From positions 32,001-96,000 of the forward strand of contig JALSOH010000009.1 of assembly GCA_026986575.1 (NCBI GenBank): a DNA stretch of 64,000 bases, written 5' to 3'. This document shows positions 12,874 through 20,016 of this stretch, one piece after another (within the stretch, counting starts at the first letter, position 1; every line of letters starts with the position of its first letter). The stretch is from Thermoproteota archaeon. Lineage in GTDB: Archaea > Korarchaeota > Korarchaeia > Korarchaeales > Korarchaeaceae. Under the pieces are notes generated by a model. That model saw only the letters and a list, made by a program, of their open reading frames with translations. It made no database searches and was not told the origin of the DNA. A program made the translations under genes and the position numbers.

Positions 12874-13204
12874 CCGGCTTCTCCACTTGAGATCCAGGGA
12901 AACACCCTAGGAGAGAGACCGGAGTTAGATATAGCTTTTTTGTGCGGGCTAGAAGCTACTTTTCAGCGAACTGATCTCTCAGAGGTCGAGCAAATATATG
13001 ACAGCTACAGTGGCTAATCGGCGTAATACTCTCATCGATTTTTAATTGGTATGTAACATTAATCCCGAACTGTCGAGCGGATATTTCAATCTATGTTTGT
13101 GAAAAAGCGTGATTTTCACGCCGGTTTTATATTTAACTGCCTTGGATGAGCAAATTATTTATTTAGCTTGTCTCGATAATTTTTTTCAGGAGGTGGGAAG
13201 TAAA

Positions 13205-14209
13205 GTGAAGTTAAGTAGGATCACTGTCTTCCTCGCCGCTGCGCTACTGGTGTCGAGCTACGCTCTGGCATCGGCTTCTCCCGTTAAACCTCCCACTGCG
13301 ACCATACTTCCTCCCCCAATACAGCTGCCGACCCCCGTACCGATACCGATAATCACTGTAACCAAGACGGAGCCTACCGTGACCATACCCAAGCCTCCAA
13401 TCACGATAATACCTATACCAACCGTCACTATTCAGCCGACCACCGCGACCTTCAGGAAGTTACATGAGGTGATCATCGAAGTGGATCCTCCCTATGCGGG
13501 GGAGGTGAAGCCCCTCGGCCAAGGAAAGCACTCCATGAAAGAGGGTAAGAGGATAGTCCTGAGGGCCGTTCCCAACGCCGGATATAAGTTCGACCACTGG
13601 ACGCTAGATGGTCATCGCAAAGTATACAGCAGGGTACTCAGGTTGCAGGTCAAGAAGGATCATGTGATCGTTGCTCACTTCGTCAAGGCCTCAAGTAGTA
13701 CTAGGAGCCCCCCTAAAATACCCACTGGATCACCATCTCCCGCAAGGGAAAGTTCCCCGGCCGGGTGCATCCTACCCAGCGACTTTCCGAAGTCTATGGC
13801 TTACTCCGGTATGTACGCTGATCTGCTGTACAACGAGGACCTGCTAGCGGGATTCGGAGAGGGAGTTGCGGGCAAGGTCATAATAGGGAGGGAGGCAGTG
13901 AGACCGCAACCCTGGCACAGTTACGGTGTGGAGATGGGCGACCTGATCCTGCGGGTTAATGGGACTAGGTACAGGGCGAGCTTCGGCTCTGAGGACTACG
14001 GCATAATATACCTTAAGTGTGAGGGCGGCCAACTCACCATAAGAGTCGCCGGATTGACTAGGTACGGCACCAGAGCGGCGCTGCTTTACCTCCTCAACCA
14101 TCCGGAGGTTGTGAACGGCAAGGTGCTTATCGTCCTAGAGTGGAAGGACTCTAACTCCAACAGAAAAGTTGAGTTGGAGGAGGTACTCCCCTTGGTATCG
14201 GTACCCTGA
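13205..14209 (+). CDS. Secreted surface protein: Pro/Thr-rich stalk, divergent InlB-B-type repeat, S-layer-like C-terminal domain
   Basis: Signal peptide (AAALLVSSYALA), P/T/I-rich linker, 'LRAVPNAGYKFDHW' repeat motif, 'VAGLTRYGTRAA' S-layer-like C-terminal motif; SD GGAGGTG. Confidence 0.6.
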   Translation: MKLSRITVFLAAALLVSSYALASASPVKPPTATILPPPIQLPTPVPIPIITVTKTEPTVTIPKPPITIIPIPTVTIQPTTATFRKLHEVIIEVDPPYAGEVKPLGQGKHSMKEGKRIVLRAVPNAGYKFDHWTLDGHRKVYSRVLRLQVKKDHVIVAHFVKASSSTRSPPKIPTGSPSPARESSPAGCILPSDFPKSMAYSGMYADLLYNEDLLAGFGEGVAGKVIIGREAVRPQPWHSYGVEMGDLILRVNGTRYRASFGSEDYGIIYLKCEGGQLTIRVAGLTRYGTRAALLYLLNHPEVVNGKVLIVLEWKDSNSNRKVELEEVLPLVSVP

Positions 14210-14213
14210 TCCC

Positions 14214-15032
14214 TCATACCTCCTCCATCATCTTCTCTATCCACGATTTTTCTCTCCTAACTCTCAGACCCCTGAACCTAGCGAGAGCGTCAAGTATCTT
14301 GGTCTGGCCCAAGAGCAAGACTAAGGAGACAGCCATGTAGAGGAGGTTCAAGGCCCATCCTTTCATGAGGGAGAGGTAGGTTTCATAGATCCCTAGGGGC
14401 TCCTCTATTAACGCCATTGGAACCAGCTCAAGGAGGAACTCGCCTGCCAAGTTAATGAATCCTATGATGGCCGTCCCTATTATGAAGCTCAGGACCCTCA
14501 GACTCTTCGTTCTCCTATATATCATGGCAAATAGTACCTCACCAGCTAGGGCTATGACGAAGAGTATGGAGATTCCAAAGGTTACAGACACTCTCATAAT
14601 ATCAATAGACCTTACATATTCCAAGAAGACGGCCCTGAAGAGGTAATACGTGTAGAAGAGCACGTAGAAGACGAAGAGGAATATCATCGTTGGAACTAGG
14701 TAGAAAACCCTGAACTCCATTAGGTATACCGCAAGCGTAGCTACTGCTGCGGATGATAGGAGGAGGAAGCTCAGAGCTAGGAACCAGCTGAATATCTTCA
14801 CTGTGGTCTCGGCGTAAACCAGAAAGACGCTCCTGTTTAACCAGTAGTAAAATACCAAGGAGAACTCTGAGAGGGCAAAGACTAGGAATGTGCTCAGAGA
14901 GAGGAGTAACCTCCTTTCTCTTGTCCGGAGTATCTCCGCGAATATGTAAAGAGAGATCGCTATCTCGGATACCAATCCCACCAAATGGGCTAGGGGATAG
15001 GGACTCATCAGGATGGACAACAGGGGAGCCAA
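14214..15032 (-). CDS. Seven-transmembrane protein (putative receptor/sensor)
   Basis: 272 aa with seven ~20-25-aa hydrophobic segments and a basic amphipathic C-tail; TTG start with SD GGAGGTGA overlapping the upstream stop. Confidence 0.7.
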   Translation of the reverse strand: MAPLLSILMSPYPLAHLVGLVSEIAISLYIFAEILRTRERRLLLSLSTFLVFALSEFSLVFYYWLNRSVFLVYAETTVKIFSWFLALSFLLLSSAAVATLAVYLMEFRVFYLVPTMIFLFVFYVLFYTYYLFRAVFLEYVRSIDIMRVSVTFGISILFVIALAGEVLFAMIYRRTKSLRVLSFIIGTAIIGFINLAGEFLLELVPMALIEEPLGIYETYLSLMKGWALNLLYMAVSLVLLLGQTKILDALARFRGLRVRREKSWIEKMMEEV

Positions 15033-15043
15033 AGTATCACCTC

Positions 15044-15502
15044 CTACATGAAGAAGAGGCCCCTAGATCTCTCAAGGGCCTTATCTACTATTCCCCGATC
15101 GTATCTCTTCTCCTCTCCCGAGGCCTCATAGCTCTCAAGCGTCCTGAATATGTCTGGGAGTATACTCTTCAGGAGTTCCTTAGTCAGCGCCTTGTTCTCG
15201 CTCAACTGCCTGTAGACTTGAATCAGCCCACCTTCCAGCCTCGAGACATCACCCTGATTCTTAGAAACTGCTAGGAGGGACGCTATCCCCGCTCGCGGCC
15301 TCTCTCCTTCCAGCCTCATGGTTATACCAACGAAGTAGAACCCTCCATGGACAAACTTGACGATCTCCCCTCCCTTAGCTGAGAATGGGAAGGACCTAAG
15401 GGGGACCGTTCCCATCTCATCTGAGAAGCTCTTTGGATAGCCAGCAATGATCTCTAGACCTCCCGGCTCGAGCGAGGCGAGCAGTAGATACTCAAGCCCC
15501 AT
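15044..15502 (-). CDS. uDENN/longin-like small protein
   Basis: Pattern 'LLLASLEPGGLEIIAGYP...LRSFP...F...FYFVG...RPRAGIASLLAVS' resembles the uDENN beta1-G-YP / FP / R-x-x-SLV pattern. Confidence 0.5.
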   Translation of the reverse strand: MGLEYLLLASLEPGGLEIIAGYPKSFSDEMGTVPLRSFPFSAKGGEIVKFVHGGFYFVGITMRLEGERPRAGIASLLAVSKNQGDVSRLEGGLIQVYRQLSENKALTKELLKSILPDIFRTLESYEASGEEKRYDRGIVDKALERSRGLFFM

Positions 15503-15599
15503 AATCCTCCACTCTCAACTACTCTGGAATAATAAAAGGATACCAGCGTGTCAGATCACAGATGTTTCAGGAGAGCGAGGGCTTAGAAATACTCGTTGG

Positions 15600-16490
15600 T
15601 CACTCGGCGTACCTGGCCATCATGTCAATAAGAATGTCCTTCACTTTACTGTAGTCCTTGGTCTTCGATATGCTGTTGATCACATCCATTAAAAGGGCCC
15701 TGACTTTGCTCTCTGGGGACCTCTTTGGTATCAAGGCAGCTGCAAGCAGCCCCTTCTTGTAGGCTATCACGATCTTCCTGTCCTTCATTTCTATGGACTG
15801 GGGGATGTCCCTCAAGGCATCCTCCGTGTAGTTCTTAGTGAGGGATAGAAACGCGCTCAGAGTGAGGCTCCTAGATGAAGATGTCGACACCAGAGGGTTG
15901 CCATGCTCGTCGAGGATCACGAGCTCCTCGATCCTCATTGGATGAATGACTTCTCCACCGGTGAGCTGCTCGTAGAGCCAAGCGAACGCCTCAAACAATC
16001 CAAAGCCCGTAAGGGCGCTGGTCCATACCACCTGCCAAGGTATCCCTTCCAGCTTGGTCAGGTCGAAGTAGTCTATCACCTCCATGACCGTGGCAGCATC
16101 CTCCAGATCCGCCTTGTTGGCCAGCACTAGAAGGGGGATGTTCCTCTTCATCATCGAGATAACGTTCCAGAGCTCCGCCTTTGCCTCATCAAATCTCTCT
16201 CTATCGGCGGAGTCGATGACGAATATTATGGCATCTGCCTTCTCTGCGTACTCAGCCCAGATCCTTCGGAGGGACCTCTGTCCTCCAAGATCCCATACAT
16301 TAAATTCGAGGTTCCTGACTCTGAGCCTCTCGTAGTTCGCTCCCACCGTCGGTATCGTCGATCCAGGCTCTCCCTTCCTTAAGTAGTTCAGTAGGGTGGT
16401 CTTACCGGCCCCATCAAGTCCCAGAATGACCAGAGTTGCTGACCTCCTGAAGAGGCCCAGCAGATTTGAGATGAGTCTTCCGAAGGGCAT
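15600..16490 (-). CDS. Arf-family small GTPase fused to a C-terminal longin/roadblock-like domain
   Basis: N-terminal amphipathic helix; G1 GLDGAGKTT, G2 PTVG, G3 WDLGGQ-x3-RRIW-x2-Y, G4 NKAD, G5 SAL; C-terminal 'IEELVILDEHGNPLV...LSAFLSL...F/Y...QSIEM..RKIVI' longin-like pattern. Confidence 0.85.
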   Translation of the reverse strand: MPFGRLISNLLGLFRRSATLVILGLDGAGKTTLLNYLRKGEPGSTIPTVGANYERLRVRNLEFNVWDLGGQRSLRRIWAEYAEKADAIIFVIDSADRERFDEAKAELWNVISMMKRNIPLLVLANKADLEDAATVMEVIDYFDLTKLEGIPWQVVWTSALTGFGLFEAFAWLYEQLTGGEVIHPMRIEELVILDEHGNPLVSTSSSRSLTLSAFLSLTKNYTEDALRDIPQSIEMKDRKIVIAYKKGLLAAALIPKRSPESKVRALLMDVINSISKTKDYSKVKDILIDMMARYAE

Positions 16491-16558
16491 CGGGATACTG
16501 TGGAGTGATATTCTAAAATAGTTTTTCTAGGGTAGGCAGCTCTTTTTGTAAAATATTT

Positions 16559-16948
16559 TTAATTAATCTCCGACCCATCGCCTCCAAGGTACGACCTGAG
16601 CTCCGATATCAGGTAGTCTATCTTCTCCTTCATGTCATTGTAATCCCTCACTCCAAGCCCCAGGTAGACATCCTTCCCTACTGTGGCAAGCACCATGCAA
16701 CCGTTCTCAGATCTCAGAAGGCACATATTGAAGCTTCCCAAGCCAGCGTGTTCTGAGAGAGACCGGGATATCTCGACTATGGCTGCGCTTGAGGCAAGGA
16801 AGAAATCCTTAACCATCTCCTCGGAGAGGGAATCGTAGAGAGATATCCCGTCGGGAGTGAACAGCCCTATAAAGAGCAAGTCCTCCCCCGCATCGTCCGC
16901 GAACCTCTCAAGTATGGCCCTGAATTCCTTAGTCAGCTCGGGCATCAT
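16559..16948 (-). CDS. Roadblock/LC7 (MglB-like) protein
   Basis: 129 aa; helix-'FIGLFTPDGISL'-helix 'FLASSAAIVEISRSL..AGLG'-three strands-helix roadblock pattern. Confidence 0.8.
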   Translation of the reverse strand: MMPELTKEFRAILERFADDAGEDLLFIGLFTPDGISLYDSLSEEMVKDFFLASSAAIVEISRSLSEHAGLGSFNMCLLRSENGCMVLATVGKDVYLGLGVRDYNDMKEKIDYLISELRSYLGGDGSEIN

Positions 16949-17688
16949 TCACCACCGCGCGGGAAGATGACTGAGCTGCTCCTCAGCTCATCAAGGTACC
17001 TAGCCACTCCAGGAGCCAACTGCCTGTACTTCCCCACCAAGAACCTGAGGTATCCGAGGATCTCCATGAGGTCCTTGATCTTGTTAGCGATCTCCCTCTC
17101 CTCGAAGTCGCTGTAGACCTCCCTAAGTACCTCACCTATCTCATCGAGCTTGTCGGCTATGGACTCAACATCCCCGTCGTAGGGAGGAAGCATGTCCCTC
17201 ATCAGGTCCACCAGCATCTCCAAATAGTTGCTTGGCATGTAACTGAGCTTGGCTGGTGCCTCGTTTACCCTCGCTGCTAGGAACCTTATCTCGGCTCCTG
17301 CATCCGGCATCCTCCTGAGCACCTCTCCTAAAACGGACGTCGCAAGCTCTATCTCTCGCTCTATCTGGGTGAGTAGGTCGCCTATCCTATTCCTCATCCT
17401 CCTGATATCTTCCCTGAGCCTTCTCATCTCCTCCCTCTTCGGAAGTTCCCCCTCGGCTCGATCGAGAACTCTGCTCATTCCATTTATCAGGAGGGACACC
17501 TCCCTCTCTAGTTCATTGAGCTCTCTGTCGAAGCTCCTCCTGAGAAGGGGGCTCGAGGCCTTGAGGAGGCTGTCAGCTCTCCTGAGGTCATTCACCACAT
17601 AATAAACGTCCTCATAGAGTGAGAGAATGAGTAACTTCATTTCCAACCTTTTCGCTTCATCTTCCTCCAAATATCTTTCCAACATCAT
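16945..17688 (-). CDS. All-helical coiled-coil protein
   Basis: 247 aa, E/R/L-rich heptads; ATGA overlap with the roadblock gene. Confidence 0.7.
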   Translation of the reverse strand: MMLERYLEEDEAKRLEMKLLILSLYEDVYYVVNDLRRADSLLKASSPLLRRSFDRELNELEREVSLLINGMSRVLDRAEGELPKREEMRRLREDIRRMRNRIGDLLTQIEREIELATSVLGEVLRRMPDAGAEIRFLAARVNEAPAKLSYMPSNYLEMLVDLMRDMLPPYDGDVESIADKLDEIGEVLREVYSDFEEREIANKIKDLMEILGYLRFLVGKYRQLAPGVARYLDELRSSSVIFPRGGE

Positions 17689-17747: not shown

Positions 17748-19436
17748 ATGGAACCGAAGACCTTGGAGGAGATACTCAATCACCTGAGGAATTCTGGCCT
17801 TCCCCCCGAGAGGATAAATAAGTTCGTTAACCTGTTGAGGAAGGACGGAGTTCTAGATGTGATTGTGAGGGTCCTCAGCAGGTGCCGATCCTTGGAGGAT
17901 GCGCTTAAGGAGATCTCCAGCCTAGGAGGAATGGCCGATGTCTCTAAGGAGATCTCCCACAAGGTCAGTATAGTCAGGAACTTCGTCCTCACGTCCCTAG
18001 TGAATCTTTCCGTTGACAAGTCCTACATGAGGAGTTTCTTCAGGAAGAAGTCTAAGGCTAAGAAGCTAAGAGAGATACTTGTATCTACCGAGGAGGAGCT
18101 TAAGGAGACAGAGGCTCGTCTCTTAGAAGCCGTGAGGGGTGTACTCCTCAAGACCCTAGAATCCCTTGAGATCAGGGATGGAACACTCAAGGCTGAGATA
18201 GAAGGAATAAAAAGCCTTCAGGATCTAGAGATAGCCAAGAAAATTTGGAATAAGATTAAGCCCGAGTTAGAAAGGGCTGTGGATGGGACCAAGTCTCAAG
18301 GCCAAGTGAGAAGGGGCGAGGAGGCCGTGCTGATAACAGACGATTTACTCAACGAGATACTCGAAGCCTTGGCGAGGATGGAAGACAACAGGAAGGAGCT
18401 AGAGCTGAGAGGGTGCACCTTCCTCCTCCTCTCTGAGGTATCATCCCTCAAGGATCAGATCCTAAGCTGGCTCTCTTCTAACTTCGGGAAGGAGTCTTAC
18501 GGGGTAACTAGTCTCCTTAAGATAATAAGAAGGCTATCCGACGACTCGGAAACCCTCCTCTCTACTTCCATTAGACTGCTGAACTTGAGGTCCGAGCTTG
18601 AGGCGGTCAAGAGGGAGGTCTTGGATAAGATCAGCCGGAAGATGCCCCATCTCACGGAGGCCATATCGATGATAGGACTGAGCTCACCGAGGCTCCCCTG
18701 CATCATCTCCATGCCCGAGGAGATAGCCAGCCTGAGGTACGAGGTTTCAAGGCTTGGAGACACGGTGAATGCCCTCAAAGAGCTCAGCAGCGAGCTGGAT
18801 CACTTCACTGACGAGATCAAGTTCCAGCCGGAGAAGCTGTCCTACAGAACAGAGTCCGACTTCCTGAAGAGCCTAATAGAGACTCTCAGGGCCTTCAGAC
18901 TCTCTAGAGGACTCCCAAGCACGGCTTACTCTCTACCAGGTCTAATGGAGGAGCTGCTCTCCCTCTATCCGAGATGGAGGGAGTACGTGAAAGAACAACT
19001 GGAGGAAAAGGGCTACCTTGAGATAGGGGAACTCTCATTCATACCGGAGATGTGGAGAGAGTGGTTCCTTTCTAACTTGGAGGAGGAGGGGCTTACCACA
19101 ATCTCCGATGGGAAGATACTCCCCAGAGCTCCCAGTTCCGAACTAAGAAAGCTCAGAATGAAATTCGAGTTCCTGAAGGACACCTACGAGGACATGAAAC
19201 CCATATTCCAGAAGGCGGGGATAAGCGAGCAATACTTAAACTCCTTGGAGAGGAAGCTAGCCCTCCTGATGGATCCCAACTATGGGGGTGAAGATAGAGA
19301 GAAGCTGCAAAGGGAGGTTGAGGAAGGCATAGAAAGGGCCCTGAACGTTCTCAAGGGTGGTGGGGTGCCCGATGAGAAAGATGAGACTGGTGGTGATGGG
19401 CCCGCACCAAGCTGGCAAGTCCACCTTGATTCATAG
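17748..19436 (+). CDS. Long coiled-coil protein with probable C-terminal winged-helix domain
   Basis: 562 aa helical; 'YPRWREYVKEQLEEKGYLEIGELSFIPEMWREWFLSNLEEEGLTTISDGKI' resembles a wH module; overlaps the GTPase start. Confidence 0.65.
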   Translation: MEPKTLEEILNHLRNSGLPPERINKFVNLLRKDGVLDVIVRVLSRCRSLEDALKEISSLGGMADVSKEISHKVSIVRNFVLTSLVNLSVDKSYMRSFFRKKSKAKKLREILVSTEEELKETEARLLEAVRGVLLKTLESLEIRDGTLKAEIEGIKSLQDLEIAKKIWNKIKPELERAVDGTKSQGQVRRGEEAVLITDDLLNEILEALARMEDNRKELELRGCTFLLLSEVSSLKDQILSWLSSNFGKESYGVTSLLKIIRRLSDDSETLLSTSIRLLNLRSELEAVKREVLDKISRKMPHLTEAISMIGLSSPRLPCIISMPEEIASLRYEVSRLGDTVNALKELSSELDHFTDEIKFQPEKLSYRTESDFLKSLIETLRAFRLSRGLPSTAYSLPGLMEELLSLYPRWREYVKEQLEEKGYLEIGELSFIPEMWREWFLSNLEEEGLTTISDGKILPRAPSSELRKLRMKFEFLKDTYEDMKPIFQKAGISEQYLNSLERKLALLMDPNYGGEDREKLQREVEEGIERALNVLKGGGVPDEKDETGGDGPAPSWQVHLDS

Positions 19437-20016
19437 GCTCGATCCTTGGGCCGTCAGGATGGACTACTCCAAGGGCACCTTCTCAACCACCGTTGGCTTC
19501 GACTACGGCATAGTCCTCTGGGACGCTACTGAGGACAGGATATACAGGAGGGATCAGATAGATCTCGTGGACCCCTCGAACGAGATATGGAAGGTCACCA
19601 TAACCGGAACTCCGGGACAGATAGCCTTCGCCCCTGTGAGGAAGGTGCTGGCTAAGGGTAAGGATGGGGTGATGCTCGTGATCGACAGCGCACGTCCAGT
19701 TCAGATGGTCTACGCGTTGAGCCAGTATCAGGAGGCGAGGGAGTCTGCTGGTTCCGTGCCTCTCATAATACTCGCTAATAAGCAAGACCTTCCACATGCT
19801 AAGAGTGCCGAGACGATAGCCTCCCTCTTGGGCATAAGGTGCAGAGTCGTCCCGATATCCGCGCTGAAGGGGACCAATGTGGAGGAAAGCTTTCTCCAGT
19901 TTCTCAAGGAGGTAAGGAGAAGCATCCTCGCTAAGTCCATATCGGAGAGATTGGCCGAGAGAAAGGAGTCAAGGTGGATATCTTGGATGAGAAGAAAGCT
20001 AGCATCATCCGTTTGA
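19372..20016 (+). CDS. MglA/CvnD-type small GTPase (copy A)
   Basis: G1 GPHQAGKST, G2 TTVGFDYG, G3 GTPGQ (no Asp, as in MglA-type GTPases), G4 NKQD, G5 SALKG. Confidence 0.85.
   Translation: MRKMRLVVMGPHQAGKSTLIHRLDPWAVRMDYSKGTFSTTVGFDYGIVLWDATEDRIYRRDQIDLVDPSNEIWKVTITGTPGQIAFAPVRKVLAKGKDGVMLVIDSARPVQMVYALSQYQEARESAGSVPLIILANKQDLPHAKSAETIASLLGIRCRVVPISALKGTNVEESFLQFLKEVRRSILAKSISERLAERKESRWISWMRRKLASSV
19435..19628 (+). repeat. 194-bp perfect direct repeat, copy 1 (inside GTPase A)
   Basis: Base-by-base identical to 32021-32214 (aggctcgatccttggg...ggacagatagcctt). Confidence 0.95.

Follow-up and report, generated by a model that had tools for sequence, protein, structure and literature searches.

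What does an Arf-type GTPase with an additional C-terminal domain do in an archaeon outside the Asgard group, and with which proteins does it act? The question is raised by one gene at 15600..16490 on the minus strand of a 64,000-nucleotide stretch of a Korarchaeaceae genome (positions 32,001 to 96,000 of contig JALSOH010000009.1, assembly GCA_026986575.1), which is referred to as the window. In eukaryotes, vesicle formation begins with Arf GTPases, a family whose origin in archaea has been established only in recent work. The gene is an Arf-family GTPase and a korarchaeal copy of the ArfR group; it is a further, well-conserved member of a korarchaeial group that has already been published, and its interest rests on a linked family of small partner proteins. 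The gene, here called ArfR-longin, and its parts have the following coordinates in the window:

15600..16490, minus strand: ArfR-longin gene, a single open reading frame (ORF) of 296 amino acids plus stop, Pfam Arf match of 180 bits
16443..16487, minus strand: basic amphipathic N-terminal segment (residues 2–16), judged by its hydrophobic moment, no Gly2
15960..16442, minus strand: Arf-type G domain (residues 17–177) with the G1–G5 motifs, WDLGGQ and RxxWxxY
15603..15959, minus strand: linker plus predicted longin-fold domain (residues 178–296), from AlphaFold2 (AF2), VIA-align (VIA) and Foldseek

The motifs listed by a first-pass annotation, made from the sequence alone, are all present in the ORF translation, i.e., GLDGAGKTT (residues 24–32), PTVG (47–50), WDLGGQ (66–71), R75-x-x-W78-x-x-Y81 and NKAD (125–128). 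Conservation was read from an alignment of 17 full-length relatives, in which G24, D26, G29, K30, T31, T32, T48, G50, D67, G69, G70, R75, W78, N125, K126, and D128 are invariant, while at least 90% of the relatives retain W66, Q71, and Y81. Pfam Arf (PF00025) matches residues 11–175 on model positions 8–173 of 174 (E 3.8e-53, 180 bits, cut-off 22.3), followed at a distance by Ras (54.4 bits), Roc (51.8), and SRPRB (44.5), and Gtr1_RagA reaches 29.9 bits, above its own cut-off of 22. With Foldseek, the G domain matched GerdArfR1 (8oum_B, E 2.8e-18, target-normalized template modelling (TM) score 0.90, 40% identity), and the listed matches were all to G domains. VIA placed Arf6 (3lvr_E) at Z 27.0 with a root-mean-square deviation (rmsd) of 1.5 over 163 aligned residues, compared with 24.3 for Sar1, 21.2 for SRbeta, about 20 for Rabs, 17.5 for MglA, and 17.1 for Roco. 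Both the bit scores and the Z values agree with the earlier proposal of an Arf-family protein rather than a member of Rup/MglA/Roco. No solved structure spanning both domains was found among the 50 VIA rows listed, none of which extends past model residue 183.

The protein search returned 401 proteins at E ≤ 0.001 among 2414 candidates, and the best 120 of these 401 were listed. These 120 include 15 full-length relatives (288–303 amino acids, 50–95% identity), of which the named ones are each an "Arf family protein" of Candidatus Korarchaeota or Korarchaeum, a 16th one labelled Bathyarchaeota (310 amino acids, 37% identity), and eukaryotic Arl1/Arf proteins (40–49% identity) that cover only the G domain and make up the remaining rows. 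The same gene was found on contigs titled Thermoproteota or Crenarchaeota archaeon (loci L003–L014, one genome per species). A pattern-based locus scan gave mostly distant Asgard GTPases (23–69 bits), and the true ArfRs were taken from whole-genome searches. Within the host class, ArfR is present in 15 of 40 genomes, all belonging to one genus out of seven, with two copies in G141 and G142 and a single copy in the other 13. The most distant ArfR-longin (37% identity) lies at 435–1367 of a 4.7-kb contig with the Bathyarchaeota label (L015), where it is directly followed, at 1339–2328, by a second GTPase of 329 amino acids that has its own C-terminal domain; the two could form a Rag-like pair. 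In passages of their paper, Vargova et al. (bioRxiv 10.1101/2024.02.28.582541) treat candidates that are neither Asgard nor korarchaeial as misassigned.

The eukaryotic proteins that come next after the gene's own family would suit an artefact, in which a eukaryotic or Asgard fragment had been mis-binned or chimerically joined to a korarchaeal genome. However, the same gene order with ilvD and cupin genes recurs in many independent assemblies, including one- and two-contig genomes (G135, G152). The host genome (1.91 Mb in 11 contigs) is 99.69% complete with 2.48% contamination and has one strong Arf match, the contig that contains the window measures at least 96 kb, and the flanking genes are ordinary and ordered as in the relatives (e.g., ilvD, encoding dihydroxy-acid dehydratase, at 81–96% identity). 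Since the gene order is common to the relatives and the GC content is unremarkable, a contaminant or chimeric origin is very unlikely and the gene is native; the chimerism that the first-pass annotation had considered is contradicted by the same evidence, and an artefact retains next to no probability. The phylogeny points in the same direction, as it places the gene with the Asgard ArfRs and not with the eukaryotes. It was a quick tree of 60 rows supported by the Shimodaira-Hasegawa-like approximate likelihood ratio test (SH-aLRT) only, with 11 korarchaeal-type rows (the window's protein and 10 of the 16 full-length ids), 19 Asgard ORFs (drawn from the Arf-like ones with at least 77 bits), 20 of the 104 eukaryotic matches, 4 bacterial copies, and 6 outgroup GTPases; the eukaryotes were Arf-, Arl1-, and Arl5-like only, without Sar1, SRbeta, or Arl2/3/8 rows. 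In this tree, the korarchaeal rows group together (SH-aLRT 88), and their clade is nested in a set of 27 rows that also contains Heimdall ArfRs (94); the eukaryotes plus the bacterial copies form a separate group (94). Six Heimdall ArfRs that are linked to a partner gene, as described below, make up a clade (99) that falls together with the korarchaeal one in a subgroup of weak support (84).

The Arf-related affiliation put forward in the first-pass annotation is thereby placed inside the Heimdall ArfR group, which matches the placement given in passages of Vargova et al. ("Arf family GTPases are present in Asgard archaea", bioRxiv 10.1101/2024.02.28.582541; later Nat Microbiol 2025 according to PMC12290439). 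There, ArfR is defined from Korarchaeum Kcr_0908, is confined outside Asgard archaea to Korarchaeia on a shallow terminal branch, and the korarchaeial clade, nested among Asgard genes, is read as a recent transfer from Asgard archaea; one of the two korarchaeial references used is the contig of our locus L013. The host is indeed non-Asgard, as had been supposed, with a genus in a class whose relatives are labelled Korarchaeota or Thermoproteota. That this would be especially notable did not hold, as the korarchaeial ArfR is already in print and explained there by Asgard transfer, so an Arf outside Asgard archaea is true but already published. In the main-text passages of that paper, neither the korarchaeial longin tail nor the gene neighbours were found, the strings "neighbo-", "operon", "synten-", and "gene cluster" have no occurrences in those parts of its text, and a linkage of ArfR to a gene for a protein of about 150 amino acids and to a membrane protein was not found in the portions of published text searched. 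The longin tail and the co-travelling partner gene of the korarchaeial ArfR appear to be undescribed.

The first-pass annotation had passed over the conserved genes downstream. The gene stands in a same-strand string that encodes, in order, a 247-amino-acid protein, a roadblock-like protein of 129 amino acids, ArfR-longin, a 152-amino-acid protein (hereafter the partner) and a membrane protein of 272 amino acids:

15044..15502, minus strand: 152-amino-acid partner gene, no Pfam family, recognized by its adjacency to ArfR
14214..15032, minus strand: 272-amino-acid polytopic membrane protein, about 7–8 hydrophobic segments by hydropathy scan, no Pfam family
16559..16948, minus strand: 129-amino-acid roadblock-like protein directly upstream of ArfR, Pfam Robl_LC7 at E 0.0017 and 18.5 bits (cut-off 23)
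16945..17688, minus strand: 247-amino-acid Glu/Arg/Leu-rich protein of no known family, its end overlapping the roadblock-like gene by 4 bases

Among the 13 ArfR-longin loci (L003–L015), L007 ends inside the gene, so that 12 could be assessed. A homologue of the partner lies beside ArfR in 11 of these 12, which span three ArfR subclades. It is downstream in nine (L003, L004, L005, L008, L009, L011, L012, L013, and L014), downstream behind two inserted genes in L006, directly upstream in L010, and absent from the Bathyarchaeota-labelled contig L015. The insertion in L006 (4645–7247) is a diverged second copy of the gene pair for the 247- and 562-amino-acid proteins (29% and 25% identity). In G144, the genome of the third ArfR subclade (L010), the homologue upstream of ArfR is weak and a better partner is encoded on another contig. 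The membrane protein, the C-terminal tail of which is basic (8 Lys/Arg in the last 32 residues), is encoded next in nine loci and is lacking in L010 and L015, while L007 and L013 end too early. In the 40 genomes of the class, ArfR was found in 15, the partner in 14, and the membrane protein in 15, without any occurrence outside this single genus; the partner is present in 14 of the 15 ArfR-positive and in none of the 25 ArfR-negative genomes. All three genes occur together in 14 genomes with matching copy numbers, including two of each in G141 and G142. ArfR alone, cut at a contig end, was found in G148 (70% complete), and the membrane protein alone in G136, where it starts at base 2 of its contig.

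The partner family reaches beyond Korarchaeia. Profiles were made from alignments of ArfR (A1), of the korarchaeal partner members (A3), and of an A3-type profile plus Heimdall members (A5). The korarchaeal-only profile matched 21 clusters, none Asgard-named and the three organism-named ones korarchaeal, and in the Heimdallarchaeota genome G002 it matched four ORFs (E 5e-20 to 2e-9), each of them immediately preceding, on the same strand, a short ArfR gene. The A5 profile matched 111 clusters, all "hypothetical" and without a Pfam family, from Heimdall-, Thor-, and "Asgard group"-labelled sources as well as Korarchaeota. Among 121 sampled Asgard genomes, 10 contain the family (17 matches), and the seven strongest matches (at least 110 bits; five in G002, one each in G090 and G101) are all directly upstream of an Arf-like ORF on the same strand, one of these ORFs being a fragment. 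Six tags of the Asgard matches have no occurrences in two supplementary files of PMC12290439. By language-model features, the partner and the membrane protein are nearest to hypothetical clusters of Promethearchaeota (0.93–0.94), and in an Atlas cluster at 0.88 to the partner, 19% of the members have the NPR2 Pfam family, the only hint at a family and one that the tool itself rates as a lead only. Longin-type subunits of GTPase-activating proteins (GAPs), i.e., FLCN, NPRL2, and SMCR8, have, in addition to the longin fold, an arginine finger and, between strands 1 and 2, a GP motif (PMC12290439). In the N-terminal segment of the partner in which the alignment suggests the loop between the first two strands, Gly is common and is followed by Pro in only one of the 11 rows covering it (L010), and at least 90% of 12 rows retain R70. 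Taken most simply, ArfR and the small partner would have moved together as a unit.

A complex of ArfR (A1), GTP, Mg, and the partner (A3) was predicted in three runs next to three controls. The scores were 0.58, 0.52, and 0.52 (best control 0.02), which amounts to a verdict of weak support; the runs share at least 91% of their contacts, and the pLDDT (predicted local distance difference test) of the partner is at least 82. In the calibration, 116 of 157 solved complexes and 2 of 215 mismatches reached the mark, but those that did so at 0.60 or below comprise only 18 of the 157 solved complexes and both passing mismatches; these counts apply only roughly here, where own alignments and ligands served as input. 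Since the adjacency conserved in two phyla is independent prior evidence, we regard the modelled pairing of ArfR with its partner as probable.

About 120 residues (177–296) follow the G domain. The full-length AF2 model (17 sequences) has a pLDDT of 84.2 and a predicted TM score (pTM) of 0.82, and a model of the tail alone (11 sequences) has values of 81.6 and 0.74, respectively. Both models predict strand-strand-helix-three strands-two helices without a leading helix, with strands at 13–17, 23–25, 56–58, 62–69, and 72–79 and helices at 30–49, 84–101, and 104–119 in the tail-only model. The tail was aligned with VIA against 48,161 chains, for which the tool's own note states that Z below 8–9 is common for unrelated chains. 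The longin of VAMP7 (Z 11.3, rmsd 3.8, 110 aligned) and Mon1 (Z 11.0, rmsd 3.4, 114 aligned) were followed by Fuzzy (10.9), the N-domain of AP-3 mu (10.4), Sec22 (10.2), and the Lokiarchaeal longin 8yqg (9.9); longins aligned over model residues 10–120 (Z 9.4–11.3), and roadblocks had Z 9–10 but ended near residue 103. Foldseek gave AP sigma/mu, Mon1-Ccz1, and zeta-COP at E 5e-5 to 1e-3. At the sequence level, phmmer with residues 178–296 against 1.84 billion representatives gave one match, to the own family, no Pfam family matched the window's own tail, and the best PDB profile match was Mon1 at E 0.29. The tails of 11 relatives retain weak echoes of Robl_LC7 (4 of 11, best E 1.4e-4) and Fuz_longin_1 (4 of 11, best E 0.075). 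The longin/roadblock-like C-terminal domain of about 115 residues that had been suggested from the sequence is therefore predicted with a longin-type fold (tail pLDDT 81.6, VAMP7 Z 11.3), and as modelled it lies outside every sequence-defined longin family.

Likenesses to the tail were also found in Asgard archaea. A standalone 130-amino-acid protein adjoining a Helarchaeota GTPase matched at E 8.7e-5 with hmmsearch (hhalign probability 58%), and two Heimdall ArfR fusions, L095 and L096, at E 5e-4 and 2e-4 (hhalign probability 15%), while the tails of L097 and L099 have no likeness to the korarchaeal one. These likenesses, like that of the L059 protein described below, are too weak to claim that the fusion is older than the transfer. 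The Asgard proteins L023 and L045 were rejected as tail homologues, as their C-terminal extension is unrelated and helical-looking by eye, despite a tblastn match that had seemed to extend into the tail. In L059 (3678–4637, minus strand), a 319-amino-acid Heimdall protein starts with a faintly tail-like domain (E 4e-5) followed by several hydrophobic segments, and its gene is divergent from that of a 442-amino-acid GTPase. Two Heimdall-type genomes (G002, L095–L100; G003, L088 and L092) encode at least 8 Arf-Pfam proteins (309–342 amino acids, Arf 97–156 bits) with C-terminal extensions of 130–170 amino acids that have no Pfam match, and only those of L095 and L096 are faintly like the korarchaeal tail.

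A fused domain of this kind could be used in more than one way. In an arrangement similar to the Rag GTPases, the tail would serve mainly to form an obligate GTPase dimer, a homodimer in most genomes or a heterodimer wherever two paralogues are present, and the neighbours would be unrelated clients. Passages of PMC10933270 describe longin and roadblock domains as commonly dimerising, a Loki longin dimer (8yqg) is among the matches of the tail, G141 and G142 have two paralogous ArfR-longin genes, and the Gtr1_RagA match above its cut-off fits as well. Against this, 13 of the 15 positive genomes have a single copy, the order of the tail is that of a longin and not that of the helix-first roadblock of Rag tails, the alignment with the Asgard RagA-like chain 8yl2_A was confined to the G domain, and the strict linkage to the partner gene is left unexplained; we consider such a dimer as the principal function of the tail rather improbable, although dimerization and a partner are not mutually exclusive. 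The tail could alternatively act in cis, as in SRbeta-SRX, by docking on the switch face of the G domain to which it is fused, where it would inhibit the GTPase or sense the nucleotide until activation frees it. SRX chains of SRalpha do match the tail (Z 8.9 for 6frk_y, 8.3 for 2go5_1, and 7.8 for 5ck3_A), SRbeta is among the best matches of the G domain, and the full-length pTM suggests that the two domains may pack in a defined way. VAMP7, Mon1, Fuzzy, and AP subunits are better matches than SRX, however, and the Z values of SRX are near those common among unrelated chains, so that cis-regulation seems quite unlikely as the main role; SRX-like docking and binding of the partner can also both hold.

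The ORF starts with MPFGRLISNLLGLFRR and has Pro at position 2, so the absence of Gly2 noted from the sequence is borne out and no myristoylation site is present. Relatives have Pro, Ala, Gly, or Ser at this position or a shorter N-terminus. The segment has a net charge of +3 and a hydrophobic moment of 0.71 (best 11-residue window, Eisenberg scale), with similar values across the main clade, and F14 is kept in at least 90% of the 17 rows. According to passages of Vargova et al. (bioRxiv 10.1101/2024.02.28.582541), the amphipathic helix at the N-terminus is required for Asgard ArfRs to localise to membranes in yeast, and these proteins have the interswitch toggle coupled to membrane binding that depends on GTP.

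Taken together, our preferred explanation combines a switch, a longin docking platform, a partner, a membrane protein, and a joint transfer, and as a whole we give it about an even chance. The G domain would act as a GTP/GDP switch, the GTP-bound state of which releases the basic amphipathic N-terminal helix onto a membrane; we infer this release because the motifs are conserved and by analogy with Asgard ArfRs and eukaryotic Arfs. The fused longin domain would most likely be a built-in docking platform, comparable to the longin and roadblock domains that serve small GTPases, and may pair with the product of the co-inherited partner gene. The pair would then either set the nucleotide state, in a GAP-like manner or like a guanine nucleotide exchange factor (GEF), or relay a signal at the polytopic membrane protein encoded next. 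We infer both the physical complex, with a GAP, GEF, or effector role of the partner, and an action at the membrane protein. A Heimdallarchaeia-like donor is the most likely source from which one korarchaeal genus acquired ArfR and the small partner together.

Several observations weigh against this explanation. The 14 genomes with all three genes are closely related and not independent samples, so that the pattern represents one history and not 14 tests. In G144, a partner-plus-membrane-protein pair is found on a contig without an ArfR match, which suggests that this pair can exist apart from the GTPase, and no Arf-like ORF lies closer than about 1.5 kb to any of the 10 weaker partner matches in Asgard genomes (42–68 bits). 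A search for RNA data covering 14214–17688 of the window found none. The fold of the partner is not revealed by profiles, as Pfam gave no match below E 0.1 for the korarchaeal and no credible match for four Heimdall members, and the PDB profile search gave no match at E ≤ 10 for A3 and only designed helical repeats and the like for A5 (best E 0.014). With hhalign, the tail profile reached probabilities of only 1.2% against the partner family and 1.4% against the roadblock-like neighbour. The complex scores of 0.52–0.58 fall in a band that the tool itself rates as wrong more often than right unless the pair is likely beforehand, and the output comes without an interface. The helix predicted by AF2 at residues 4–13 has a pLDDT below 50 over residues 1–14, and the moment of 0.71 is equalled by 5% of shuffles of that window. 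Finally, Ala is aligned at the position of the Phe in the Arf GFN motif, and the effector surface therefore differs from that of eukaryotic Arfs.

A bolder version of the preferred explanation, which we judge unlikely, takes the ArfR, its fused longin, the partner of about 150 amino acids, and the polytopic membrane protein as a minimal, horizontally mobile Arf module with the partner as the first prokaryotic Arf regulator. The partner would then form a two-subunit platform with the fused longin, as in Mon1-Ccz1 or FLCN-FNIP, with Arg70 possibly being catalytic, and the membrane protein, as a receptor, would determine the site at which the switch is triggered. If true, the partner would be an ancestral Arf regulator, older than the eukaryotic Sec7 GEFs and zinc-finger ArfGAPs, a status that would follow from the position of the same partner family in front of Heimdallarchaeial ArfR genes. 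The text passages of the cited papers contain no regulator or effector of any archaeal ArfR, and PMC12290439 openly asks on which GTPases the Asgard longins act. The partner gene, tied to ArfR in two archaeal phyla, is a concrete candidate for a regulator or effector, and the longin domain fused to ArfR itself is a further one; because the lineage has small genomes, the proteins should be easily produced and tested.

As for the other neighbours, the roadblock-like gene is present only in the main clade (L003, L005, L006, L008, and L009), in which the gene for the 247-amino-acid protein is also conserved, with a duplication in L006. Just beyond the membrane protein, the window encodes a 366-amino-acid protein (13109–14209, plus strand) that has a hydrophobic stretch in its N-terminal part and also contains a region rich in Pro, Thr, and Ile and an InlB B-repeat domain (Flg_new_2, E 4.4e-8); this protein is much more variable than its neighbours (50–89% identity among relatives). 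A second small GTPase (19357–20016, plus strand; 219 amino acids as listed) has TGTPGQ as G3, without the usual Asp; the first 80 bases of its ORF overlap the preceding 562-amino-acid gene (17748–19436, plus strand), and its true start may be later. The lack of the conserved Asp in G3 is a hallmark of MglA, and one Group 4 MglA was reported from the sole korarchaeal genome known at the time (PMC4316618). This GTPase and the nearby roadblock-like protein look like an MglA/MglB-type pair beside the ArfR string. Homologues of the haloarchaeal vesicle GTPase ArvA were reported in 8 Korarchaeota (PMC10927574).

When compared with known systems, the protein belongs to the same family and lineage as the korarchaeial ArfR Kcr_0908 of Vargova et al., the passages of which treat the G domain only; the restriction to one genus of seven and the tree grouping with Asgard ArfRs agree with that paper, and the longin tail and the neighbours are added here. 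The Asgard HodArfR1 and GerdArfR1 (PDB 8oul, 8oum, 8oun; 40–41% identity, target-normalized TM score 0.90 on the G domain) consist of a single domain, with about 180 amino acids in all, whereas the korarchaeal protein carries a longin tail of 120 residues. With the eukaryotic Arf1, Arl1, and Arf6 (41–46% identity) it has all G motifs in common, including WDxGGQ and RxxWxxY, and it differs from them by the missing Gly2, the Ala in place of the GFN Phe, and the extra longin domain. GTPase-longin architectures are already known from Asgard archaea: Tran et al. 2024 (PMC10933270) describe, in passages of their text, fusions of Rag-like or Arf-annotated GTPases with longin or roadblock domains in a Lokiarchaeon and state that the GTPases of MK-D1 are generally not in operons with longin/roadblock genes, and Zhu et al. 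2025 (PMC11914678) describe Asgard Arfs with extra N-terminal domains. The architecture is of the same kind here, in a bona fide ArfR with a C-terminal longin, in a non-Asgard genome, and within an operon-like string. In Rag/Gtr proteins, too, the G domain precedes a C-terminal domain with the roadblock/longin superfold; the korarchaeal protein is set apart from them by its Pfam scores (Arf 180 vs. Gtr1_RagA 29.9 bits) and by a tail predicted without a leading helix and with two trailing ones. SRbeta differs in its Pfam score (SRPRB 44.5 vs. Arf 180 bits) and in its hydrophobic anchor, in place of which a basic amphipathic stretch of 16 residues is found here, and MglA lacks the G3 Asp (PMC4316618), which is invariant in the korarchaeal ArfR (D67; MglA Z 17.5 vs. 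27.0 for Arf6). The best or near-best structural matches of the tail considered here, i.e., Mon1-Ccz1, Fuzzy-Inturned, the first longins of HPS1-HPS4, and SRX, all bind a small GTPase; they have no significant sequence relationship to the tail, and they act in trans, the tri-longins as heterodimers on Rabs, whereas the korarchaeal longin is fused to the GTPase itself.

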